Origin: Nitrospirota bacterium
GTDB lineage: Bacteria > Nitrospirota > Thermodesulfovibrionia > Thermodesulfovibrionales > Dissulfurispiraceae
DNA: 64,000 nt
Assembly (NCBI GenBank): GCA_040754455.1
Contig: JBFMCP010000002.1
Coordinates: 160,001-224,000, forward strand
Direction of reading: 5' to 3'
Positions 4,684 through 51,789 of this stretch are shown here, piece after piece; position 1 is the first letter of the stretch; every line of letters starts with the position of its first letter. The notes under the pieces were generated by a model. That model did not search any database, had not been told where the DNA came from, and saw nothing but the letters and a program-made list of their open reading frames with translations. The position numbers were made by a program, and so were the translations under genes.

Positions 4684-4728
4684 ATAAAAGGCATCGAGTC
4701 CTTCAGTCGTTGTACTATTAAAGCAAGC

Positions 4729-4820
4729 GTCATTGGACATTGGTCATTAGCTATTGGTCGCTTATCAGTTGTCAGTTACTTTTACCAATGACCATTGACT
4801 ATCGACCAGTGATCGATGAC
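4729..4820. repeat. Inverted array of 7-nt units (CATTGGT-like / ACCAATG-like)
   Basis: cattgga-cattggt-cattagc-tattggt ... accaatg-accattg-actatcg-accagtg-atcgatg. Confidence 0.75.
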
Positions 4821-13575: not shown

Positions 13576-13585
13576 AATAATTGGT

Positions 13586-13661
13586 TATCAGCCGTCAGCA
13601 AAGGGCAGAGAAAAACAGCATAAAGGTCTTTACCTATGCTGAAGGCTGATTGTTGAGGGCT
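13586..13661. repeat. Inverted TCAGC/GCTGA heptamer element, homologous to 22791-22882
   Basis: tatcagc-cgtcagc ... gctgaag-gctgatt-gttgagg-gct. Confidence 0.7.
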
Positions 13662-13679: not shown

Positions 13680-14321
13680 ATGATTGCCATTGTTGATTAC
13701 GGGATGGGAAACATAAGGAGCGTCGAAAAAGGATTCATCAAGGTCGGCGCCGGGGTGAAGGTCACGTCCGACCCCAAGGTAATCGCTGATGCGAAAGGCA
13801 TCGTGCTTCCCGGTGTGGGGGCATTCAAGGATTGCATGGCCAATCTCGACAAGCTCTCACTCCTCGACGTGATCACCAGGGAGATAGCAAAGGGCAAGCC
13901 CTATCTCGGCATCTGCCTCGGCCTTCAGATACTGTTTGCCGAGTCCGAGGAATTCGGCTTCTGCAAGGGCATGAACGTGCTCAGAGGAAAGGTGGTCAAA
14001 TTCAGATTTGATGGTAATCAGCAATCAGCAGTCAGCAATCAGCAATTAAAGATTCCACATATGGGATGGAATACGGCGCGGTTGATCAGGAAACCGCCGA
14101 TCTTCGGCGGAATTGACGATCAGTCATATTTCTACTTTGTCCACTCCTACTATGTCGTGCCCGAGGACGAGGGTGTTATTGCTGCGCGGACCGACTACGG
14201 CGTCGATTTCGTCTCGATGGTATGGAAGGATAATATCTTCGCCACGCAGTTCCATCCGGAAAAGAGTCAGGACCTTGGACTGAAGATTCTCAAGGGATTT
14301 AGCGAGTTTGTAACAAAGTGA
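13680..14321 (+). CDS. hisH: Imidazole glycerol phosphate synthase subunit HisH
   Basis: [48 protein letters not shown] at 13680 preferred. Confidence 0.95.
14016..14043 (+). repeat. Four tandem heptamers (ARTCAGC) inside hisH
   Basis: aatcagc aatcagc agtcagc aatcagc, encoding [10 protein letters not shown]. Confidence 0.9.
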
Positions 14322-16222
14322 GCGAACAGACCGTAAAAAGCATTATCCTCGGTACCGCAGGACATATCGACCACGGCAAAAGTTCTCTGGTGAAGGCACT
14401 CACCGGAGTCGATCCCGACCGCCTGAAAGAGGAGAAGGAGCGGGGCATCACCATAGACCTCGGCTTTGCCAGCCTCTCGTACCCCGACGGACTTTCGGTG
14501 GGGATTGTCGATGTGCCCGGACATGAGCGCCTGATCAAAAACATGCTGGCGGGTGCGGGCGGCATCGATATCCTGCTCATGGTGATTGCCGCCGACGAGG
14601 GCATCATGCCCCAGAGCCGCGAACACCTCGCCATCTGCGAGCTCCTCAAAATCAAGGACGGCATTGTCGTCGTCACCAAGGCGGATCTCGTCGATGAGGA
14701 GTGGCTGCAGCTTGTTACTGAAGATGTGCGGACTTTTGTTAAGGGAACTTTCCTCGAGCACGCGGAAATCATCCCGGTGTCGGCTAAGAGCGGTCTGAAT
14801 CTCGAGAAGCTCAAGGACAAGATACACGAGGTGGCCCGTACCGTTAAGCCGAAGCTGATCGACGGGCTGTTCAGGCTCCCGATCGATAGGGTATTTACCC
14901 TGAAGGGATTCGGCACGGTCGTGACCGGCACCGCACTGTCAGGGACTATCGCACTGGATGCCCCTGTCGAGATACTGCCCTCACGCATCAGCACCAAAGT
15001 GCGGGGACTCCAGAGCCACGGCAGGAGCGTTGATAAAGCATTTGCCGGGCAGCGCATCGGCATCAATCTCCAGGGCGTCGACAAAGACCTGCTCAAGCGC
15101 GGAGATGTGGTGGTCGATTCGGACAAGCTCGTTCCCACTGCGGTGCTGGATGCGGAGCTGGAGCTCCTTGAGGACGCCCCGCTGCTCAAGAGCAGGGACC
15201 GGGTGCATTTTTACGCAGGGACCTCGGAGACGATCGCCAGGATTGTTATCTATGACCGGGATGAGGTGAGGGCAGGCGAATCGTGCTACTGCCAGTTCCG
15301 CCTCGAAGAGCCGATCGTCGCCCTCTCCGGCGACCGGTACATCATCAGGAGGTTTTCGCCCCTCGAAACGATCGGCGGAGGGTCGATTCTCGATCCCTAC
15401 CCGATCAAGCGCAAAAGGAGCACCGGTATCGAGGACCTCATCCTTTTCAAGGAGGGGTCGCTGAGGGATAAGATCGAGGTAAAGGTAAAGAGGGCGCATA
15501 TCAACGGCTGCCGTATTGCCGAAATCGAAGGATGGATCCAGGCGAATATTCCCGAGATAAGAACAAACATCGAGCAATTGCTCAAAGAGGGTATACTGGT
15601 CAAGAGCAGCGACGTCCTGTTCCATAAGACCGCGCTGGCCGCCTTTAGAGAGGCGCTCATCGCAGAGCTCAAACGGTTTCATAAAGAGCATCCCCTGAAG
15701 CCGGGCATGACAAAAGAGGACCTGAGGACGCGCATCAGGATCTATCAAAAGGATGCCGAGAGGGTCTTCAACAGTCTGGTCGATATGGTGAAGGAAGTGG
15801 TGGTCGAGAAGGAGACGGTACGTCTCAAGGACTTCACGGTGGCCCTGACCAGCACGGATGAGGGAGTGAAGGGCAGGATCATCGCAACCCTCAACAAAGA
15901 GGGATTTCAGCCCTCATTCAAGCCCGAGCTCGCCCAGAAGCTGTCCCTTGGTGAAAGGGAGCTCGGCGATCTGCTCAAGCTCCTGACTGCGGAGGGCGCG
16001 CTGGTGCGCATCAACGATTCCCTGTATATAACGAAAGAGCAGTATGACAGGATCATCGCATTGCTGAAAGACTTCTCTTCGAAAAAGAGCGAGATGACCG
16101 TTGCGGAGTTCCGAGACCTCCTGGGCACTACCCGCAAGTATGCCCTTCCGTTCCTCGAGTATTTCGATTCCCATCGGATGACGCTGAGGGTTGGGGATAC
16201 GAGAAAATTAATGATAAAATAA
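14318..16222 (+). CDS. selB: Selenocysteine-specific elongation factor
   Basis: [31 protein letters not shown]-terminal winged-helix [13 protein letters not shown]. Confidence 0.96.
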
Positions 16223-16225
16223 AAA

Positions 16226-16314
16226 AGAATTCAGAATTCAGGAGCCGGAAGCCAGAGTAAAGAAAAAGATCTGAACTGATTTATTCTGACTCCTGGATTC
16301 TGGCTTCCGGCTCC
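16226..16314. repeat. Inverted heptamer array (AGAATTC/GGAAGCC type) with a 16-bp perfect inverted core
   Basis: agaattc-agaattc-aggagcc-ggaagcc-aga ... ttctgac-tcctgga-ttctggc-ttccggc-tcc; ggagccggaagccaga pairs with tctggcttccggctcc. Confidence 0.8.
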
Positions 16315-18899: not shown

Positions 18900-19061
18900 A
18901 AGTGGCAGGAGTGGGTACGGAAAGGAGCTTTCTCATGCGCAATTTATTTGAATGGATATGCCTCTCTCAATTGTAAAGATAGATGCTATCGAGGATGTGA
19001 GATCTTAGTGGAAGCTAAGGAGGCGCTAGAAAGCTCCTTTCCGTACCCACTCCTGCCACTT
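18900..19061. mobile_element. MITE-like element: 34-bp perfect terminal inverted repeats around a 94-bp spacer
   Basis: AAGTGGCAGGAGTGGGTACGGAAAGGAGCTTTCT at 18900-18933 and its exact reverse complement at 19028-19061. The repeat is certain; mobility is inferred. Confidence 0.55.
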
Positions 19062-19087
19062 ATATAGTGGAAAGAGAATAAAAGAAT

Positions 19088-19816
19088 ATGGATCACAAGA
19101 AGGGAAAGATTGCCGCTATTGTTCCTGCTGCGGGGGTCGGGAAGCGGTTCGGCCAGGACAGGAACAAATCGCTCTATGAGCTTGCAGGAAAGCCGCTGCT
19201 GATCTGGGTGCTCGAAGCGCTCCAGGGCGTGGGGGAGATTGACGAGATCGTCCCGGTGCTCAAGGGCGAGGATATCGCGCCAGGTGCTGCATTGATAGAG
19301 CAGTATGGTATTACGAAAGTGAAGCGTGTCATTCCCGGCGGCAGGGAGCGACAGGATTCGGTTTATAACGGTCTCAAAGCTCTGGACGGCAGGGCCTCTG
19401 TTGTTGCTATTCATGATGGAGCACGGCCGCTGGCGGATGCGGAGTTGATCCGGAGGACCCTTAGGGGCCTCGGCGATTTTGATGGTGCTGTTGCAGCAGT
19501 GCCGGTGAAGGATACCATAAAAGAAGGTAAGCTCCACAGGGATGAGGAGGGGAGCGAAACTAATGAGATTGTCGTCAGGAGGACATTAGACCGTGCGGTC
19601 CTCTGGGCGATCCAGACGCCCCAGACCTTTTACTTGGAGAAGCTTAGGAATGCACACGAGAAAGCGCGTGCCGATGAATATTACGCTACCGATGATGCAG
19701 CCCTTGTCGAAAAATACGGAGGGTTGATAAGGATCGTCGAGGGCTCCTATAGGAATATCAAGGTAACCACGCCTGAAGATATCGCCATCGCGGAAGCCCT
19801 CTTGAAATGTAGATAG
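19088..19816 (+). CDS. ispD: 2-C-methyl-D-erythritol 4-phosphate cytidylyltransferase
   Basis: PAAGVGKRFG, GGRERQDSV, IHDGARP, QTPQ, TDDA, NIKVTTPED. Confidence 0.95.
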   Translation: MDHKKGKIAAIVPAAGVGKRFGQDRNKSLYELAGKPLLIWVLEALQGVGEIDEIVPVLKGEDIAPGAALIEQYGITKVKRVIPGGRERQDSVYNGLKALDGRASVVAIHDGARPLADAELIRRTLRGLGDFDGAVAAVPVKDTIKEGKLHRDEEGSETNEIVVRRTLDRAVLWAIQTPQTFYLEKLRNAHEKARADEYYATDDAALVEKYGGLIRIVEGSYRNIKVTTPEDIAIAEALLKCR

Positions 19817-19900
19817 CCCGTATCCGGCTCCTCACTATGCCTTCCTGAATAGAGAATCAAAATGCTCAAATTTGTTGCATTTGTTTTATAATGTAAGCCT

Positions 19901-20371
19901 ATGCGTATAGGTATCGGCTACGATTCACATCGACTTGTTGAGGGCAGAAAGCTCATTATCGGCGGGGTGGATATCCCTTTTGAAAAGGGACTGCTCGGCC
20001 ACTCCGATGGCGATGTGCTGTGCCACGCAATTATCGATGCGCTCATCGGCGCGCTCGGTGAAGGGGATATAGGAAAGCATTTTCCTGATACCGACAACCG
20101 ATGGAAAGATGCATCGAGCATTATGCTGCTCAGGCATATTGTCAATATGGTGAAGTCAAAGGGCTTCGAAATCCAGTGGATCGATGCCGTCATCATCACT
20201 GAAAGACCCAAAATGGCCCCTCATATCGATTTCATGAAAGCTGCGATTGAACAGGCCGGCATTCTCCCCTCGGTGATCAACATCAAGGCAAAGACGAATG
20301 AAGGAATGGGGTTCATCGGCAAAGAGGAGGGTATTGTCTCGCAGGCGGTATGCCTTATAAAGCAGATATAA
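19901..20371 (+). CDS. ispF: 2-C-methyl-D-erythritol 2,4-cyclodiphosphate synthase
   Basis: MRIGIGYDSH, GHSDGDV, GDIGKHFPD, NIKAKTNE. Confidence 0.96.
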   Translation: MRIGIGYDSHRLVEGRKLIIGGVDIPFEKGLLGHSDGDVLCHAIIDALIGALGEGDIGKHFPDTDNRWKDASSIMLLRHIVNMVKSKGFEIQWIDAVIITERPKMAPHIDFMKAAIEQAGILPSVINIKAKTNEGMGFIGKEEGIVSQAVCLIKQI

Positions 20372-20492
20372 CCTAATCACGATCTCAACTTCAGACCAGC
20401 AATCCATCTTTATACAGAGCTGTCCTCTTCTCTCGTCTTTCACTACACTCACTTTTTCATTTCGGATAGTATCATGAAGAAAATTAGACAAT

Positions 20493-20524
20493 AAAAAAGG
20501 GCGGGTCTTGCGACCCGCCCTTTT
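20493..20524. terminator. Rho-independent terminator between convergent ispF and porin genes, probably bidirectional
   Basis: aaaaaagggcgggtc-ttgc-gacccgccctttt. Confidence 0.85.
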
Positions 20525-20552
20525 ATGTTACGCGTTGCCGCGTGACTGGTAA

Positions 20553-21968
20553 TTAGAAGCTGAGCTCGATACCGTGCCTTACAGCATAGGCATCATCATC
20601 AGTTGTTCCGCCAGTGATTGCTTTGACAGCATCGCCGGCGAAGAGGTAACCGCCCTCAACCCAGTAAACGAGGTTGCGGTCGATCTTGTAGGTGATCTTT
20701 CCGTCAACTTCGATACCTAAATCCTTGTCATTGTTTGTTGCGGTGATATCTTCAGATGCTCTCAGGTAATAAACGTTCACGAGAGCATTGAGGTCCTTCA
20801 TGATATCAGCGGAAGCACCAACTTTGATATACCAGGTATTGGTAATACCGGAGTTGTTGGGGCCACCTGCAGTTGCTGTGCGGTAGTCATATACATAGGT
20901 GTACTTCTGGATACCGCTCTGAAGAGTCTGGAATCCATCAATATCATCATCAGCATCAGCGTCAGGATCGTTACCGCTACCATAAGCATACTCGAGGGTG
21001 AGCTTTACCGGAGCAAGGGTGTAGTCAATGCCTACGAGGTAAGCATAGCCACTATAATCCCGATCCTGTGCTCCTGCTGCTTCACCTTCAAGCGTACCTC
21101 TCTGCAACTCAACATCGGCCCTGATGCCGAAGCCGGCAATCTTGGTCTGGCCTCTCAGGCCAAAGTTCCAGAGATGGCTGTCATTCTGCTCAGCCGGATC
21201 TACTGTAGAAACGAGTGAGTTCTGCACATCGATGTAGGTAGCATCGAAGCCGATGCTGGTATCTTTGTTGAGGTTGTAGCTGAGCAGCAATGAATAGAGG
21301 TCGCCGTCGTTGCTTGATATCCTTCTGTTGTTTGTTAATGTGCTACCAGTTAATCCAACCTGACCAGCACCCTCTGAGAGTTTTGCTGTCAGGAACTCGA
21401 CATGGAGATCTTTCATAGGATCAATGAAGACGTTGATTGCATCATCACCGAACTTCGAGTGATCATAGAAGAGACCATAGCCGAGCTTGACCGGCATATG
21501 ACCGACCTTGAAGCCTGCAGGCACGCCGAGGAGGCCTGCACCCTTGTGCTGGATCCATGCTTCGAGAATGAAGAGTTCATTCTGTTTGAGGTTGCCAATG
21601 TTGTTAAATGCATATGAACCTTTGCCTTCACCAGCCGTGGTGCCCCACTCAACATCACTGCTGTTAGTACCTGTGCCATGCTCGAGGTGGACAACGCCGG
21701 TGGTGTTTTTCGAAACATCAGCCTGGAGGCGGAGTCTTACCCTCTGATCATAGTAAGAGAGACGATCGGTATCGTCATCGTCAAAATCAAGAGTATTGTC
21801 CTGAACCTCACCTCTTACTCTGATGCTACCGCCCAGGGTGAGCTGGGTGGTGCCTTTTGCTACGACTGCCTGGGTCTCTGACGGGATGTCAGCGTGGACC
21901 GCGAAGGCACTCGCCGCAAAGCCAAGAACCAACATCATGCTTGCGACTACTGCTAAAATTTTTCTCAC
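20553..21968 (-). CDS. Outer-membrane beta-barrel porin (alginate-export/major porin-like)
   Basis: Signal peptide ending ASAFA, alternating beta-strand pattern, C-terminal Phe (GIELSF). Confidence 0.8.
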   Translation of the reverse strand: MRKILAVVASMMLVLGFAASAFAVHADIPSETQAVVAKGTTQLTLGGSIRVRGEVQDNTLDFDDDDTDRLSYYDQRVRLRLQADVSKNTTGVVHLEHGTGTNSSDVEWGTTAGEGKGSYAFNNIGNLKQNELFILEAWIQHKGAGLLGVPAGFKVGHMPVKLGYGLFYDHSKFGDDAINVFIDPMKDLHVEFLTAKLSEGAGQVGLTGSTLTNNRRISSNDGDLYSLLLSYNLNKDTSIGFDATYIDVQNSLVSTVDPAEQNDSHLWNFGLRGQTKIAGFGIRADVELQRGTLEGEAAGAQDRDYSGYAYLVGIDYTLAPVKLTLEYAYGSGNDPDADADDDIDGFQTLQSGIQKYTYVYDYRTATAGGPNNSGITNTWYIKVGASADIMKDLNALVNVYYLRASEDITATNNDKDLGIEVDGKITYKIDRNLVYWVEGGYLFAGDAVKAITGGTTDDDAYAVRHGIELSF

Positions 21969-22155
21969 TTCCTAACCCTCCTATGGTTAGTTCAGTATGG
22001 ACCGCCAAAGGCGGTGTACAGCAAAATGAAGATCGTAAAAACTGAGTAGTCAGAATCTGAGAACCGGACTTTGTTTCCTTCACCTCCCATGGGTGATCAT
22101 CCAGTTGCTAAAGACCGGGAAAGACAAGCTTGAAAGTTGAACGTACAATAGAAGG

Positions 22156-22186
22156 TTTATACCATTTCGTACACTATGCCTGTCAA
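22156..22186 (-). promoter_or_regulatory. Putative sigma-70 promoter for the porin gene
   Basis: Minus strand TTGACA-N19-TATAAA with an extended -10 TGn; the spacer is long. Confidence 0.45.
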
Positions 22187-22195
22187 GCAAAAAAT

Positions 22196-22230
22196 AGCTT
22201 TCAGCTATCAGCGGTCAGCCGTCAGCTTTT
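22196..22230. repeat. Heptamer arm downstream of the four-helix-bundle gene, overlapping its stop codon
   Basis: agctttc-agctatc-agcggtc-agccgtc-agctttt. Confidence 0.88.
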
Positions 22231-22567
22231 GAATAAAAGAAGTCAGCATACGTTTAACCTCGACGACCTCTCCAGCAAGCGTTTCATAATCAGACACTTG
22301 CAATAAGCCAAGATCATGTGAGAGTAATAAGTGATATTCAAGTTCGCTTGCCGAGCCGAATGCTATCTGGAGAAAGCGAGCGAATTCGATCTCACTGCTT
22401 CTTCCGCAACCTTCCGCAATATTGGCAGAAATAGAGCCGCTTGCTCGGCGGATCTGGCTTGTTAAGCCATACATTTCTTCCCTTGGGAATGTTACAGTGG
22501 CTTTGTAAACCGCCAATGTCAATTGATGGCTTTTTTGCCAGACTTTCAATTCTTTAAAATCTCTCAA
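22208..22567 (-). CDS. Four-helix-bundle protein (TIGR02436 / 23S rRNA IVP / Avd-like family)
   Basis: FKELKVWQKS, FPREEMYGLTSQIRRAS.SISANIAEG, FLQIAFGSASELEYHL; TTG start with aggagc RBS. Confidence 0.93.
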   Translation of the reverse strand: MRDFKELKVWQKSHQLTLAVYKATVTFPREEMYGLTSQIRRASGSISANIAEGCGRSSEIEFARFLQIAFGSASELEYHLLLSHDLGLLQVSDYETLAGEVVEVKRMLTSFIQKLTADR

Positions 22568-22578
22568 ACAATGCTCCT

Positions 22579-22609
22579 GCTGATAGCTGATGGCTGAAAG
22601 CTGATTGCT
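22579..22609. repeat. Heptamer arm upstream of the four-helix-bundle gene, inverted relative to 22196-22230
   Basis: gctgata-gctgatg-gctgaaa-gctgatt-gct. Confidence 0.88.
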
Positions 22610-22648
22610 TGATTATTGTCAAAGAGCCGTATAGTAGATACGGTACGT

Positions 22649-22664
22649 AGCAACTAGTATGCCA
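22649..22664 (-). promoter_or_regulatory. Sigma-54 (-24/-12) promoter
   Basis: Minus strand TGGCAT-ACTAG-TTGCT; candidate enhancer sites TGT-N12-ACA (22730-22747) and TGT-N11-ACA (22751-22767) upstream. Confidence 0.7.
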
Positions 22665-22790
22665 TAGCCTCTGGTAGGCATAACTAATTGTAATTTTAGT
22701 GGTTATCTATCAAGTGGGTGTCAAAAATTTGTGGTTATTCTGCAACAATCTGTGAATTGCGGAAACATAGTCAATATATTGACAGGAGAG

Positions 22791-22882
22791 CAGCTATCAG
22801 ACTATATTTTGAAAAAGACTTTATAGAAAACGCTGTTTCTCTTTGTCCTTTGCTGATTGCTGACGGCTGATAGCTGATGGCT
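22791..22882. repeat. TCAGC/GCTGA heptamer element upstream of the TPR gene
   Basis: cagctatcag ... gctgatt-gctgacg-gctgata-gctgatg-gct (22852-22882). Confidence 0.8.
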
Positions 22883-22927
22883 ATTTGTATCTTCATTGAC
22901 CATTCAGACCACACCGATTTATAGTAA

Positions 22928-23503
22928 ATGAGGAAAACGCACATGGCGAAGGATTTCAAATATGATCAGGCGATCGCCAAATACACGAAGATCATAGAAT
23001 CGAACCCGGAGCATTACAGCGCCTACAACAACCGTGGGCTCGCCTATTTTAAAAAGGGCCTTCACCAACGTGCATTTGCCGATTTCGATAAAGCCATCGA
23101 GCTCAATCCCGCCTTCATCCCTGCCTACATCAACCGCGGCAATGCCCACCAGGAGCTGGGGCACTACGATGTAGCAATCGCCGATTTCAACAAGGCTATT
23201 GAGCTGGACCCCGGCAACGATATGGCCTACAACAACCGCGGGTTTACCTTTCTTTTGACGGGTCGCTATGCAGAGGCTGAAAGGGATATCGCAAAGGCGC
23301 TCGAGCTTAACCCGGACAATGTCTATGCATTGAACAGCATGGCTGAACTTTATGCCATGCGCAACGATGCGGCAGAGGCCTGCACGTGGTTGAAGCGGGC
23401 TTTGGAGAAAGGGTACACCAACTGGAGCTATATCAAAACCTCGAAGACATACAACAATATCCGCAGCGCGCCCTGCTTTATGGAGATAGTGAAGGGGAAA
23501 TAA
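22928..23503 (+). CDS. Tetratricopeptide repeat protein
   Basis: Repeated AYNNRG..Y / AIADFNKAIELDP TPR units. Confidence 0.9.
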   Translation: MRKTHMAKDFKYDQAIAKYTKIIESNPEHYSAYNNRGLAYFKKGLHQRAFADFDKAIELNPAFIPAYINRGNAHQELGHYDVAIADFNKAIELDPGNDMAYNNRGFTFLLTGRYAEAERDIAKALELNPDNVYALNSMAELYAMRNDAAEACTWLKRALEKGYTNWSYIKTSKTYNNIRSAPCFMEIVKGK

Positions 23504-23509
23504 TAGAGA

Positions 23510-23584
23510 TGGTGGGCGATGAGGGTATCGAACCCACGACCTCTTCCGTGTGAAGGAAGCGCTCTCCCACTGAGCTAATCGCCC
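23510..23584 (-). tRNA. tRNA-Val (anticodon CAC)
   Basis: Minus strand GGGCGATTAGCTCAGTGGGAGAGCGCTTCCTT-CAC-ACGGAAGAGGTCGTGGGTTCGATACCCTCATCGCCCACCA; folds as a cloverleaf with encoded CCA. Confidence 0.95.
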
Positions 23585-23683
23585 GTCTTTACTATTATAA
23601 ACAAAATCGGCAGCGGATGGGGAAGTTTTGGTGCCCTTTCCGTTCGGCAAGAGATCACCGTGACCAAAAGGGAGATTAATTAA

Positions 23684-25543
23684 GTGCTGTCACACAAAGC
23701 AGATGAATTTCTGGGCGGGGCCATCGGAAGCGCCCTGGAGCACTACGAGCCCCGGCATTCGCAGCGGGCGATGATGAGCGCCTGTTCCCGGATTATTGAG
23801 GAAGGGGGCACCTTGCTGGCCGAGGCAGGCACTGGCACCGGCAAGACCTTTGCGTATCTTGTCCCGATCATACGCTCCGGGCAGAAGGCGATTGTCTCGA
23901 CCAGGACCATCAATCTCCAGGAGCAGATCGTTGCAAAGGACCTGAAGTTTCTTGCCGGCCTTACTCCCTTTGAGTATGTCATAGCAAAAGGCAGAGGCAA
24001 CTATCTCTGCCTGAGAAGACTCAATGCCTTCAGACCCTCGAACGAGCAGGAGACAGAAGAGTACAAGAGCCTGCTCAGATGGGCATCGGCGACAAAGAGC
24101 GGCGACAGGGAGGACTACGGATTTATCCGATTGATGATCTGGGATGAAGTCTGCTCGGATGCGGATGCCTGCAGTGCGTTGAAGTGCGGCTTTTTCAAGC
24201 AGTGCTTCTATTTCGGCGCGCGGCAGCAATGGGAAAAGGCCCGGATCATTGTGGCGAACCATGCGCTGGTCGGCATCAACGCCCTGCTGGAGCGTGATGT
24301 CCGCATGCTGCCCCAGGCCGAGGTGCTCGTCATCGATGAGGCCCATACACTCGACGGCGTGCTTTCGGAAATAGCCGGAGTGACCCTGACTGACAGGGGC
24401 TTTGACCGCATCTTCAACAAGCTGCTGAAGCTCGATGAGCGGGGAGTGTACAAGGGACTCCTCGGAAATTCTCCCCACCTCTTCCCAGCAGTTGAATCAC
24501 TGAGGACCGAAATGGGAATTCTCTGGATTCATGCCAGAAATGAGCTGAAGCACCGGGAGACGATCAAAGGGGAGTGCGTTCTGAAGGAGCGTATGCAGGC
24601 GCTCATAACATCCATCAACGAACTGATTGAAAAGGCCAGGACGACGGTGACGGGCCTCTTCAAGGAGGATGACGAACTGGAGCTCTCGGCAGCCCTCGGC
24701 AAGCTCAAGGCCTATGCCGAGGGAATGGAGGCCTTTTCCGAAGGTATGGCCGACTACGTCAGATGGGCTGATATTGAAGAGCGGCGGATTTCCCTTCGCA
24801 TGTCGCCCATCTACTCAAGGGAGCTCATGCGCAACAGCATCGTGCCGGAGCACCGGTCGATCATCCTCACCTCGGCCACACTTTCCGTATCCGGAGATTT
24901 CAGCTTTATTACGAACGTCCTCGGGCTTGACGGCGCCGAAACGCTCACTATCCCTTCTCCCTTCGATTTCCGCAAGCAGGTTGTTGTCGATATCAGAAAG
25001 GGAATAAATCTTAAGGAGGAGCGCAGCGCAGAGAAACTGTCGGCGGTCATTCTCGAGGAGGCGGCAAGAAGAGACGGCGGGGTGCTGGTGCTGTTCACTT
25101 CGCGAGAGGTTATGAAGAGGACCTGGGAGCTTTCAGCCGAAGCGCTCGGTATCATGGGCCTCAACCCGATGATGCAGGGAGAGCTGCCAAACCGGTTGAT
25201 GCTCGAAATTATGAGAGACAGCGATAACAGCGTCATCTTCGGTCTCGACTCTTTCTGGGAGGGCGTGGATGTCAAAGGCGATGCGCTCAAGTGCCTCATC
25301 ATCACCAAGCTCCCCTTCGAGGTGCCGACGGAGCCGATCGTAAAGGCGAGGAGCGAGGAGATTGAGAAGCGCGGTGAAAACCCCTTTTATGAATACGCGC
25401 TTCCCCGCGCAGTGCTCAAATTCAAGCAGGGGTTCGGGCGGCTGATCCGTTCGAAGCGGGACAGCGGAAGGGTCGTCATCTGCGATGAGCGGATAGAGAC
25501 CAAAGCCTACGGGCGCAAATTCATGGAGAGCATCTATAAATAA
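23684..25543 (+). CDS. DinG/YoaA-family Fe-S ATP-dependent DNA helicase
   Basis: EAGTGTGKT, KGRGNYLC, Cys cluster, IDEAH, TSATL, SFWEGVDV, QGFGRLIR. Confidence 0.92.
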   Translation: MLSHKADEFLGGAIGSALEHYEPRHSQRAMMSACSRIIEEGGTLLAEAGTGTGKTFAYLVPIIRSGQKAIVSTRTINLQEQIVAKDLKFLAGLTPFEYVIAKGRGNYLCLRRLNAFRPSNEQETEEYKSLLRWASATKSGDREDYGFIRLMIWDEVCSDADACSALKCGFFKQCFYFGARQQWEKARIIVANHALVGINALLERDVRMLPQAEVLVIDEAHTLDGVLSEIAGVTLTDRGFDRIFNKLLKLDERGVYKGLLGNSPHLFPAVESLRTEMGILWIHARNELKHRETIKGECVLKERMQALITSINELIEKARTTVTGLFKEDDELELSAALGKLKAYAEGMEAFSEGMADYVRWADIEERRISLRMSPIYSRELMRNSIVPEHRSIILTSATLSVSGDFSFITNVLGLDGAETLTIPSPFDFRKQVVVDIRKGINLKEERSAEKLSAVILEEAARRDGGVLVLFTSREVMKRTWELSAEALGIMGLNPMMQGELPNRLMLEIMRDSDNSVIFGLDSFWEGVDVKGDALKCLIITKLPFEVPTEPIVKARSEEIEKRGENPFYEYALPRAVLKFKQGFGRLIRSKRDSGRVVICDERIETKAYGRKFMESIYK

Positions 25544-25579
25544 GCTCTCAGCAATCAGCTGATGGCTGAGAGCTTTTTT
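25543..25579 (+). terminator. Terminator hairpin built from TCAGC/GCTGA heptamer units
   Basis: agctctcagcaatcagctgatggctgagagct followed by a T run, right after the helicase stop codon. Confidence 0.7.
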
Positions 25580-25702
25580 GCGATTGCCAAGCCGTCCTTT
25601 TTGCGATAGTCTTTAGTTATATATCAGTCTGCTACGTACTTTCCCGTGTAACGCTGGTACGACATGTCCTGATATCCCTGCTCTCATCAAGGAGGTGCCC
25701 CG

Positions 25703-27639
<1,937 letters not shown>

Positions 27640-29590: not shown

Positions 29591-31444
29591 TCAGAATGCA
29601 CTTTTCAGTTTGATCTCATCAACCATTCCGCTGCCGCGGATGAGGAAGCCGTTGACGCTCAGGATGGTCACTCCCGGCTGGGCGGCCTTCAGGTCAGCCT
29701 GGAGATCACGGGTGAAGGTTTGCCATACGCCGTTGCGGGCGCCGGTGCCGAGCCCGTAGTGTACGTATTCGCCGGTGCCGCGGTTGCTGTAGCTTACCGG
29801 TGTGTAGGTGAGATAGCGGTGCCCTGCCGTAGTCTCCACATCAATGTAGATCGTAAAGTCCGACGAGTATTTCATGCTCCATTCGATGACAAACTGGCTG
29901 GTGTTGTTCCACGGAGCAGCAGCGTCGCTCCTGAGTCGATAGCCGTTGGCCGTACCGCTGCCGCTCAACTGAATGACGCGGCTTTGACGTGCCGTATCGT
30001 AGACATTGGTGATTTTTGCTCCCGCGGGATCGTTGTCGTAAATGTCCCATCCCTTGATGGTACCGTCCTGGGCGTCTTCATATACCGTGGCCGCTTTCAT
30101 CAGCTTAATACCGTCGAGCAAACCGCTGCCGCGGATGAGGAAGCCGTTGACGCTCAGGATGGTCACTCCCGGCTGGGCGGCCTTCAGGTCAGCCTGGAGA
30201 TCACGGGTGAAGGTTTGCCATACGCCGTTGCGGGCGCCGGTGCCGAGCCCGTAGTGTACGTATTCGCCGGTGCCGCGGTTGCTGTAGCTTACCGGTGTGT
30301 AGGTGAGATAGCGGTGCCCTGCCGTAGTCTCCACATCAATGTAGATCGTAAAGTCTTCCGCATACTTCATGCTCCATTCGATGACAGACTGGCTGGTGTT
30401 GTTCCACGGGGTGTAATCATCATTTCTCAGCCGGTAACCGTTGGCCCGTCCCGCGCCGCTCAACTGAATGACGCGGCTTTGACGTGCCGTATCGTAGACA
30501 TTGGTGATTTTTGCTCCCGCGGGATCGTTGTCGTAAATGTCCCATCCCTTGATGGTACCGTCCTGGGCGTCTTCATACGCTGTGATGGTCGTGGCCTGGG
30601 GGGGGGCCGGAGGAGGGGGCGTCGTAGCAGCGAAGCTTGCTGCTATAGAGTGATGAGCTGTTACATTACTAAAGGTATAGGTATTGACGGCGCCGACCGA
30701 AACGCCATCGACCTTTACGTCGGCGATGAGGTACCCCGCATCGGGGGTAATGGTGAATGTTCCGCTTGCTCCCTGGGTAACCGATACTGTTCCTGAAGGG
30801 GTGATGGTCCCTCCGCTGCCTGCAGAAGCTGTTATCGAATAGGTAGTTGCCGGAGTGATATTGAATGTTGCGGTAATTGTCGTTGCTGCATTCATGGTGA
30901 CGGTGCATGTTCCGGTGCCAGTGCAGTTGCCTGACCATCCTGCAAAGGTCGAGCCTGTCGCCGGTGCAGCGGAGAGTGTCACGACCGTACCCTGATTGTA
31001 GGGTTCGGTGCAGTCGGTACCGCAGTTTATTCCCGTACCTGTTACGGTCCCTGTCCCTGTCCCGCTTTTGTTGACCGTAAGCGAATATTGCTGGGGAGCC
31101 GCAGGCGTTGTTTTTGCCACCATATTGGAATATCCGCTTTCGCCTCCTGCGGTGTTATAGGCAGTGGCGACGAAGTAATAGGTCGTTCCGGGGGCAAGGT
31201 TAGTGATCGTATATGTTGTTCTGTTGCCGACATCGACATACTGCGGATAGCTGCCCGACACTGTACTATAGTAGATCCTGTAGCCGGCAAGATCGGTGAT
31301 CGGTGTGCCGTCGCTATTGGTGGTCGGCGGGTTCCAGGCGAGCTGGATCTCGGCGGCGCTCGCTATGCCGGCAATAATAAACACGCACCAGAAGACTACT
31401 ATTGAGATTGCCGCACATCTTCTATTGTTCCGGTTTTTGCTCAT
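29591..31444 (-). CDS. Secreted surface protein: FN3 domain, two InlB-B/bacterial-repeat-like domains, Pro linker and two ~165-aa beta-sandwich repeats
   Basis: Signal peptide, LAWNPP...GYRIYY...LAPGTTYYFVATAY, TFAGWSGNC, duplicated C-terminal domain. Confidence 0.82.
   Translation of the reverse strand: MSKNRNNRRCAAISIVVFWCVFIIAGIASAAEIQLAWNPPTTNSDGTPITDLAGYRIYYSTVSGSYPQYVDVGNRTTYTITNLAPGTTYYFVATAYNTAGGESGYSNMVAKTTPAAPQQYSLTVNKSGTGTGTVTGTGINCGTDCTEPYNQGTVVTLSAAPATGSTFAGWSGNCTGTGTCTVTMNAATTITATFNITPATTYSITASAGSGGTITPSGTVSVTQGASGTFTITPDAGYLIADVKVDGVSVGAVNTYTFSNVTAHHSIAASFAATTPPPPAPPQATTITAYEDAQDGTIKGWDIYDNDPAGAKITNVYDTARQSRVIQLSGAGRANGYRLRNDDYTPWNNTSQSVIEWSMKYAEDFTIYIDVETTAGHRYLTYTPVSYSNRGTGEYVHYGLGTGARNGVWQTFTRDLQADLKAAQPGVTILSVNGFLIRGSGLLDGIKLMKAATVYEDAQDGTIKGWDIYDNDPAGAKITNVYDTARQSRVIQLSGSGTANGYRLRSDAAAPWNNTSQFVIEWSMKYSSDFTIYIDVETTAGHRYLTYTPVSYSNRGTGEYVHYGLGTGARNGVWQTFTRDLQADLKAAQPGVTILSVNGFLIRGSGMVDEIKLKSAF
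29628..30577. repeat. Direct repeat of ~455 bp (29628-30082 and 30123-30577, offset 495)
   Basis: Near-identical DNA except for one divergent internal patch. Confidence 0.92.
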
Positions 31445-50600: not shown

Positions 50601-51789
50601 GGTGATAATGAGCGGGAACAAACGCTGGATCCAGTACCAGATGGAATTGACCACCAGCGATCCGTCAAGCTCGCCTGTTTTCGATGAAATCAGGATATCC
50701 TACCTGAAAGGGCCGGTTATCAACAGCTTGGCGCCAGCATCAGTTACTGCCGGGAGTTCAGCGTTCACACTTTTCGTCAATGGCAGCGGATTCGCCACTG
50801 ATTCTATAGTACGCTGGAATGGCTCGGATCGTCCCACAACGTATGTCAATGCCACTCAGTTAGCAGTGTCGATACCGGCAACGGATATAGCGGCGGCTGG
50901 AACAGTCCAGGTGACGGTGGTCAATCCTTCCTTCGGAGGGATCATCTCCAATGCCCAAATCTTCACGATCAATAATCCCGTGCCGGCGATTTCGAGCCTG
51001 AATCCATCATCCAGGGCAGCCGGAGGCTCAACCTTCACACTTACCGTCAATGGTACCGGCTTCATCAGTGATTCCGTAGTCCAATGGAATGGAGTAGATC
51101 GTCCGACCACATTTGTTTCTGCAACACGGCTGACCGCTGCGATTCCTGCTTCGGACATAGCGACAGCAGGGATGGCCCAGGTGATGGTGGTCAATCCCGC
51201 ACCGGGGGGCGGCACCTCTCAACCGCAAACCTTCACGATCAATAATCCGGTGCCGGCGATTTCGAGCCTGAGCCCTGCGACGGTCTATTCCGGAGGACCG
51301 AATTTCACGCTGACTATAAGTGGCAGTGGCTTTGTCCCCAGCTCGGTGGTCCAATGGAATGGATCTGCTCGTACGACGACGTATATTGCTTCGACCAAGT
51401 TGACCGCTGCGATTCCTGCTTCGGACAGAGCGACAGCAGGGATGGCCCAGGTGATGGTGGTCAATCCCGCACCGGGGGGCGGCACCTCTCAACCGCAAAC
51501 CTTCACGATCAATGATCCTCCGGTACCGGTAATTACGAGCCTGAGTCCGTCATCCGCGACAGCCGGAGGGTCGGCCTTCACACTGACCGTCTACGGCAGC
51601 GGCTTCGACATCGACTCGGTGGTCCAATGGAATGGAACGAGCCGTACGACGACGTATCTTTCATCAACCAAGCTGAGAGCTACAATTACGGCAGCCGACA
51701 GAGCGTCGGCAGGAACTGCCCAGGTGACCGTGTTTACGCCTGCCCCTGGTGGCGGCATCTCCAATCCACTGATCTTTGTAACGTACTGA
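47644..51789 (+). CDS. Large secreted protein: deacetylase-like N-terminal region, beta-sandwich domain and four IPT/TIG-like repeats
   Basis: Signal peptide, RHDFE/GSHNGG/YGH motifs, repeated PAISSLxP..FTLTVxGxGF...SVVQWNG..RxTT units. Confidence 0.7.
51131..51513 (+). repeat. Near-identical ~113-bp internal repeat within the TIG domains (51131-51243 and 51401-51513)
   Basis: tgaccgctgcgattcctgcttcggaca(t/g)agcgacag...cttcacgatcaat; one mismatch seen. Confidence 0.85.

Follow-up and report, generated by a model that had tools for sequence, protein, structure and literature searches.

A four-helix-bundle gene framed by inverted heptamer arms in a porin leader, and related gene-less hairpins, as a candidate mobile element family in a Nitrospirota genome

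The window analyzed here is a 64,000-nt stretch of contig JBFMCP010000002.1 from the Nitrospirota bacterium assembly GCA_040754455.1. Between a porin gene and a TPR gene, it carries a unit of approximately 415 nt composed of a 5' arm, a ribosome binding site (RBS), a four-helix-bundle gene, and a 3' arm (Table 1). Tandem Repeats Finder reported two arrays of period 7, one of 4.6 copies (22196-22227) and one of 4.4 copies (22579-22609), and these are mutually inverted, with 77% complementarity over 31 nt or 88% over 24 nt. An earlier note on this DNA had described the arrays as five AGC-NN-TC units and four GCTGA-NN units in inverted orientation; both arrays and their inversion were recovered, but the fifth unit in the left one departs from the pattern (AGCTTTT). 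The left arm does encode the C-terminal residues as well as the stop codon, and the right arm directly adjoins the RBS, both as the note had stated. It had also envisaged an approximately 30-bp duplex of 5-bp helices separated by 2-nt gaps. In the predicted fold of the minus-strand RNA (22180-22625), the arms pair around the open reading frame (ORF) (z = -3.98, with 0 of 100 shuffles as good), but the duplex is less regular than envisaged, since in the best register 21 of 24 positions pair and the outer 10 bp are free of mismatches. Terminal complementary arms around an ORF, a feature of the 23S rRNA intervening sequence (IVS), are present, while no 23S rRNA gene was found around the cassette and Rfam identified only a tRNA in 19000-26000. 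No intrinsic terminator was called at the 3' arm. The GC3 of the gene is 0.42, compared with a median of 0.64 for called genes, and the gene was overlooked by the gene caller, which is biased toward typical codon use.

Table 1. Features of the cassette locus (window coordinates)
Feature	Position	Strand	Remarks
Outer-membrane porin gene, cassette in 5' leader	20553..21968	-	DESULF_POR1-like, below cut-off
3' arm, GCTGA-NN units	22196..22230	-	Codes KLTADR and TGA stop; T run next
TIGR02436/PF05635 (IVP) four-helix-bundle gene	22208..22567	-	119 aa, TTG start
RBS AGGAG	22574..22578	-	6 nt ahead of TTG; from sequence
5' arm, four TCAGC-NN units on mRNA strand	22579..22609	-	Abuts RBS
Sigma54-type -24/-12 motif TGGCA-N6-TTGC	22650..22664	-	Consensus match only; porin's presumed original promoter
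Gene-less hairpin, TCAGC-type unit	22788..22882	+	In front of TPR gene

To our knowledge, structures have been solved for PF05635 and no function has been assigned to it. The cassette protein scored far above the curated cut-offs of both family profiles (TIGR02436, 134 bits versus 24, E 2e-39; PF05635, 135 versus 33.8, E 1e-39), in agreement with the family named in the earlier note. Its predicted structure has four helices (pLDDT 96.9) and superimposes on Xcc0516 (2GSC) with a TM score of 0.94 and on Avd (4DWL) with 0.80 at 15% identity, so the previously claimed structural kinship to Avd holds for the predicted model. The Avd profile score was 23.8 bits, below its cut-off of 80, and the flanking genes are the porin and TPR genes. 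Solved relatives (2GSC and 2RLD) have five chains and, together with the available text of PMC4990558, suggest by analogy that the cassette protein is probably a homopentamer. With 14 K+R and 15 D+E, the protein is not basic; the median charge of its homologues is +2.

The arms are a property of the family rather than of this locus. We sampled the 86 closest loci, 80 of them genomic (many bacterial phyla and one archaeon) and 6 viral, of which 84 were scored. With an arm chain counter built on TCAGC, and with relatives that are not independent samples, inverted arms flanked 69 of the 84 homologues but 4 of 285 shifted control positions, in support of the family-wide inverted 7-nt periodicity for which the earlier note had proposed a test. 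Arrays on both sides occurred at 64 of 84 homologues and at 0 of 285 control positions; the gene-enclosing pair is therefore not due to chance. All 75 downstream arrays had a period of 7, as did 77 of the 78 upstream ones, and the arms lay at fixed distances from gene start and stop, although in some homologues the upstream array was direct rather than inverted (direct score of at least 14 in 18/84). Unit type, labeled by a custom pattern classifier, followed protein similarity: the TCAGC class accounted for 73 of 83 homologues with at least 55% identity over residues 6-108, which lie outside the arm-encoded residues, versus 2 of 25 below that level, and more distant homologues had other units or periods of 6, 8, or 9. 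A family tree built by a quick method (108 rows placed, L144 omitted) left most forks open and showed weak clustering only.

The genomic settings of the homologues were diverse, with 162 neighboring ORFs falling into 120 clusters, none of which contained a porin. Most neighbors were housekeeping genes, including gnd-zwf, carA-carB, gatA-gatB, mutA-mutB, and ribosomal-protein genes, and 44 of 76 homologues sat between co-directional ORFs. No transposase, integrase, or reverse transcriptase (RT) family was detected in the 87 of 149 neighboring ORF fragments that were scanned, 28 of which had no family at E ≤ 1e-12. In six IMG/VR contigs (L152-L157), one and the same pair of viral ORFs flanks a cassette whose arms are of TCGGC type; phages may serve as vehicles. 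The gene is under strong purifying selection. Across 26 comparisons, pN was 0.14 to 0.25 and pS 0.73 to 1.05; dS was saturated in all 25 besides that with the nearest homologue, from a Nitrospirota genome (dN 0.15, dS 2.5), and truncated frames were seen in 4 of 84 homologues. The arm cores are kept even though synonymous sites are saturated, whereas the NN positions vary freely, with adjacent NN identical in 49 of 308 cases; four units per arm is the mode.

At the porin locus, the cassette appears to have entered an existing 5' leader. In a scan of 30 porin loci with the sigma54 -24/-12 consensus, 11 carried the motif on the porin strand and none carried it on the opposite one (expectation, 0.014 per locus); it is conserved in the congener, and rpoN is present in the genome. 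The distance from motif to porin was 162 to 292 nt in eight cassette-free loci and 875 nt in one, compared with 566 and 696 nt in the two filled congeners, a displacement from which entry into the leader follows. The consensus match thus suggests that the cassette lies between the porin and its presumed promoter. Since both arms are downstream of this one motif, they would be co-transcribed, and we propose that the cassette is transcribed in this position without needing its own promoter. A full gene occupied the porin slot in 2 of 29 relatives' porin loci, namely G001 (68% identical, TCAGC-NN unit) and G006 (36% identical, a different unit). In G029 the arms surround an internally deleted gene in reverse orientation, in G022 the slot holds a tight array pair without a gene, and in G005, G010, G021, and G036 the TPR and porin genes are present and the gene is absent. 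Filling of the slot occurred more than once, and the cassette found here dates back to the split of the genus, because the congener copy is 68% identical, like the neighboring genes. A 98-nt deletion within the gene was found on a single contig with a depth of 3.3 and may be an error.

Several other observations concern this region. Short ORFs of 70 to 130 aa, apparently coiled-coil, gather upstream of the porin in L034, L046, L047, L052, and L055, the slot that the cassette occupies here. In G001:C44 (L062:11950-14900, downstream of the porin), a heptamer array followed by an intrinsic terminator occurs four times in direct orientation and separates small ORF pairs that by eye resemble toxin-antitoxin systems. 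In front of three of the four copies, the final bases of the porin gene are duplicated; we read this as a stepwise accumulation of cassettes at the 3' end of the porin, with duplication of the target. The joints 22226-22834 and 22231-22579 resemble an empty allele, but their sides are 29 and 21 letters long around an unread middle, and we set them aside as probable other copies of the hairpin.

Elsewhere in the genome, period-7 arrays were abundant, with 226 found compared with 3 to 45 for periods 5, 6, and 8 to 11, so that a single array is ordinary here. There was one TIGR02436/PF05635 cassette gene in the genome, plus an Avd gene in a separate diversity-generating retroelement (DGR). Neighboring arrays formed 58 inverted pairs with a spacer below 100 nt and none with 100 to 300 nt; one pair was direct. 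Polarity was fixed in 50 of the 58 tight inverted pairs, and 44 of them lay between co-directional genes, mostly beginning at the upstream stop codon. The resulting gene-less hairpins, dozens in the genome, are 70 to 140 nt long, with spacers that by eye fall into families. The one beside the cassette has a shrunken left arm near 22790, a family-typical spacer resembling by eye the copies at C20:13807, C29:15189, and C43:14057, and a right arm at 22852-22882, an array that the earlier note had overlooked together with the genome-wide abundance of such arrays. In a related strain, this hairpin is longer by 7 nt at 22790 and by 14 nt at 22864. A sigma70-like site at 22779-22808 was set aside, as it spans the shrunken arm and is 7 nt wider in the related strain. 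Three more stretches of the window, 13580-13660, 16213-16314, and 4728-4812, hold inverted heptamer pairs without a gene, and their units are of three types. Genome-wide, 36 arrays were inside called genes; one of TCAGC type (14016-14046) is in frame within a hisH-like gene, where it spells 10 residues, and is kept in the congener and missing from a paralogue. Long tandem repeats (29628-30577 and 50956-51727; period 495, 270) occur inside large secreted-type proteins.

The commonest unit type in the genome, CAGRA-NN (75 matches), has no cognate gene in the assembly; such arrays therefore persist or spread without it. In a single-contig genome (G008:C1), this unit is strand biased, with 20 forward and 3 reverse matches. 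Counts of two unit patterns came to at least 10 in 13 of the 24 gene-bearing genomes versus 1 of the 17 without the gene, where G005 and G029, which have gene fragments only, were classed as without and kin are not independent. A PF05635 match was missing in 14 of 41 relatives, and remnants and broken copies were common.

We compared 166 orthologous junctions across approximately 430 kb of the congener G001. No array was present at 128 of them, 17 and 12 carried one in one genome only, and 9 were occupied in both, which is more co-occupation than expected (p 0.001); by eye, six of these nine bear different units. Among the 38 array-bearing junctions, all inspected by eye, 13 were clean filled/empty cases, 12 differed in unit type, 8 had the same type, and 5 were unclear, and the swapping of unit types implies a process of overwriting. 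By eye, no consistent target-site duplication was seen at filled/empty junctions between these congeners, which are approximately 25% diverged. At hisA-hisF, G001 has a full cassette and the empty allele is without arms. The earlier note had proposed a unit gained and lost between retained arms, to be recognized by comparing the porin-TPR locus in relatives. Gain and loss are supported by the filled/empty differences at the porin slot and at the orthologous junctions. The retention of arms is supported neither by the empty alleles at hisA-hisF, TPR-tRNA, and hisH-selB, which carry no arm remnants, nor by the porin comparison, in which no cassette-free porin locus had a TCAGC array upstream of the porin.

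If an mRNA duplex were selected, G·U pairs should be in excess of A·C. Ordinary post-stop hairpins of the genome, used as a control, showed this excess (159:87 in 250 hairpins, p 5e-6), whereas the cassette arms had no bias (76:75 in 64 cassettes), and the gene-less tight pairs had little excess (117:98 in 87 pairs, p 0.22). Core deviants were alike in both arms (31/155 and 31/153), and the variable positions mostly mismatch between arms. The two arms were weakly coupled, both at variable positions (0.34 versus 0.28 when shuffled, about 2 in 100) and in their shared TTAGC deviants (p 0.02), which fits either pairing or copying. Arm sequence is conserved symmetrically on both strands, like that of element ends or of a structure that has to form on either strand. 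The absence of G·U bias in the cassette arms weakens the mRNA-duplex model and favors recognition of DNA or of both strands.

The cassette protein has no catalytic domain, and several candidate enzymes were examined. A borrowed RT was rejected, as RT was found in 14 of 41 genomes and is absent from the array-rich G001, G013, G016, G019, G021, G022, and G036; in the present genome, the RT is about 70 kb from the cassette, beside the true Avd, and there is none next to the cassette. The corresponding DGR, with Avd, template repeat, and RT, lies at L002 (G000:C2:110097-113399), about 50 kb before the window start. RAYT/Y1 transposases, present in 30 of 41 genomes, had no clear link to arrays, and the sole Y1 match of this genome, a short frame, lies at least several kilobases from any array. 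In G021:C3:342016-342884, a long CAGAA-NN array is located approximately 400 nt from a Y1 transposase-family gene. No GxxExxY genes were found in the genome. DGR-type adenine mutagenesis as the source of the NN positions was ruled out because the core adenines are kept.

The explanation that we favor, with a probability of about one half, is that the cassette and the gene-less hairpins are mobile, that it is the sequence motifs in their arms that are recognized, probably by a pentamer, and that a host enzyme moves them. In this family of heptamer-armed elements, the cassette would be the member that carries a gene, and the hairpins of 70 to 140 nt would be the miniature form. These elements come and go with their arms, favor stop codons and operon junctions, and vary arm length by whole units; they decay via internal deletions, and elements of other unit types take their place at the same junction. 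Their unit is clade specific, and at the porin a host promoter, as judged from the consensus match, was captured. The 5-nt cores may be retained as motifs read on both strands, either of DNA or of RNA and its complement alike. Their reader would be the cognate homopentamer, with roughly one unit per subunit (4 to 5 units per arm), and the protein might chaperone insertion and replacement by the host enzyme, a role that we infer because it has no catalytic domain. The neutral charge of the protein is a counterpoint to the pentamer reading, Avd being described as positively charged, and gene and arms could share their type simply by co-inheritance. The cassette is also old at the porin site and may be inactive at present. 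We are more tentative about a stronger version, in which a pentameric Avd-like ring would read its cognate 5+2 arms, one unit per subunit, and license a host enzyme to insert and overwrite cassette and miniatures at stop codons, constituting a widespread class of mobile elements that lack their own transposase, integrase, or RT and have a unit code for each clade.

The closest competing account, although an improbable one, is that of an mRNA-level intervening sequence, in which the arms pair and RNase III excises the gene or splits the mRNA as in 23S IVSs, making insertions into operons tolerable or uncoupling the genes. This would agree with the predicted pairing, with one promoter motif upstream of both arms, with the location of over half of the homologues between co-directional ORFs, and with the slight lean of tight pairs toward G·U; RNase III is encoded in the genome, and the available text of PMC4990558 has it cutting the stem of the Coxiella relative. 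However, the even G·U to A·C ratio of the cassette arms, unlike that of the control hairpins, and the identical core deviants of both arms lower the likelihood of RNase III processing, at least as judged from sequence. Variable positions mostly mismatch, sequence is conserved and not just pairing, the upstream array is direct in some homologues, and excision without ligation would sever the porin mRNA from its 5' end.

Somewhat less credence goes to two further accounts, which we hold equally doubtful. In one, heptamer arrays in transcripts, both the gene's own and those of the many hairpins at gene junctions, are bound by the pentamer to adjust translation or decay, and the flanking arms are autoregulatory sites. 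Such a host function would explain the purifying selection on the gene, the tendency of the same junctions to be occupied in both congeners, and the position of arrays next to stops and RBSs, and a regulatory role is proposed for Beggiatoaceae heptamers in the available text of PMC4679880. It is harder to reconcile with occupied junctions that change unit type between congeners, with most unit types here having no cognate gene, with unrelated hosts and neighbors, with the absence of a PF05635 match from about a third of the relatives, and with the frequency of remnants and broken copies. In the other, the gene is a passive passenger of slippage-prone arrays that act as sites of recombination and capture, and the protein has an unrelated function with no array contact. 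Whole-unit insertions between strains, the excess of arrays over genes, the neutral net charge, and the other small genes and toxin-antitoxin-like ORFs near arrays at the porin locus in relatives are in line with this. Against it, slippage would homogenize all seven positions, whereas adjacent NN are seldom identical and cores are kept across phyla; unit type tracks protein clade across the many neighborhood clusters, and arm distances from start and stop are fixed.

We know of no established source of bacterial heptamer repeats. This locus links PF05635 to such repeats and provides a cognate pair, a protein clade and its TCAGC-NN unit. If a transposase-less class exists as outlined above, it would explain the excess of heptamer repeats in many bacteria, an ORF-bearing 23S IVS would be a cassette that landed in rRNA, and Avd might have originated in this way. 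If the protein drives replacement, this would be a mobility mechanism with no known catalytic gene.

Among known systems, REP/REPIN-RAYT and miniature inverted-repeat elements (MITEs) combine a gene framed by inverted repeats with short inverted doublets just after stops. As with REPINs, the doublets described here are dispersed, near stop codons, and polymorphic between relatives, and as with MITEs they are short, with terminal inverted repeats and dispersed families; unlike in REP-RAYT systems, the enclosed gene is not a Y1/HUH transposase and the arms are periodic 5+2 arrays. The 23S IVS of Coxiella burnetii is described in the available text of PMC4990558 as 428 nt long, with S23p in a 28-bp stem that contains GACAGAT heptamers and is cut by RNase III, the heptamer copy number differing between strains. 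It shares with the cassette the protein family, a similar size, and terminal inverted repeats containing heptamers. In contrast, the cassette is in a porin leader, its homologues are in mRNA operons, its gene is preceded by a good RBS and evolves under purifying selection, and it is accompanied by dozens of gene-less miniatures. GGGAATC heptamers in Xanthomonas and Nostoc, with 70 to 75 inverted pairs in Xanthomonas (PMC4692102), and TAACTGA heptamers in Beggiatoaceae (PMC4679880) are, as far as the accessible text of these papers goes, likewise located between co-directional genes and near stops. Unlike those repeats, many unit types here coexist and swap at orthologous junctions, and one encloses a gene; no four-helix-bundle gene is mentioned in that text. 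The literature searched, mostly open papers without supplements and in part only portions of them, gave no account of a gene-plus-arms package outside rRNA. Avd, reported in the accessible part of 10.1101/2023.10.23.563531 to be positively charged and to bind a stem-loop with all five protomers, resembles the cassette protein in fold and in having pentameric relatives, but the two differ in their low identity, the sub-cut-off profile score, the lack of an adjacent RT, and the near-neutral charge of the cassette protein. Overall, the architecture is real and general, a variation on the IVS-type cassette whose behavior is that of a REP/RAYT system lacking a transposase.
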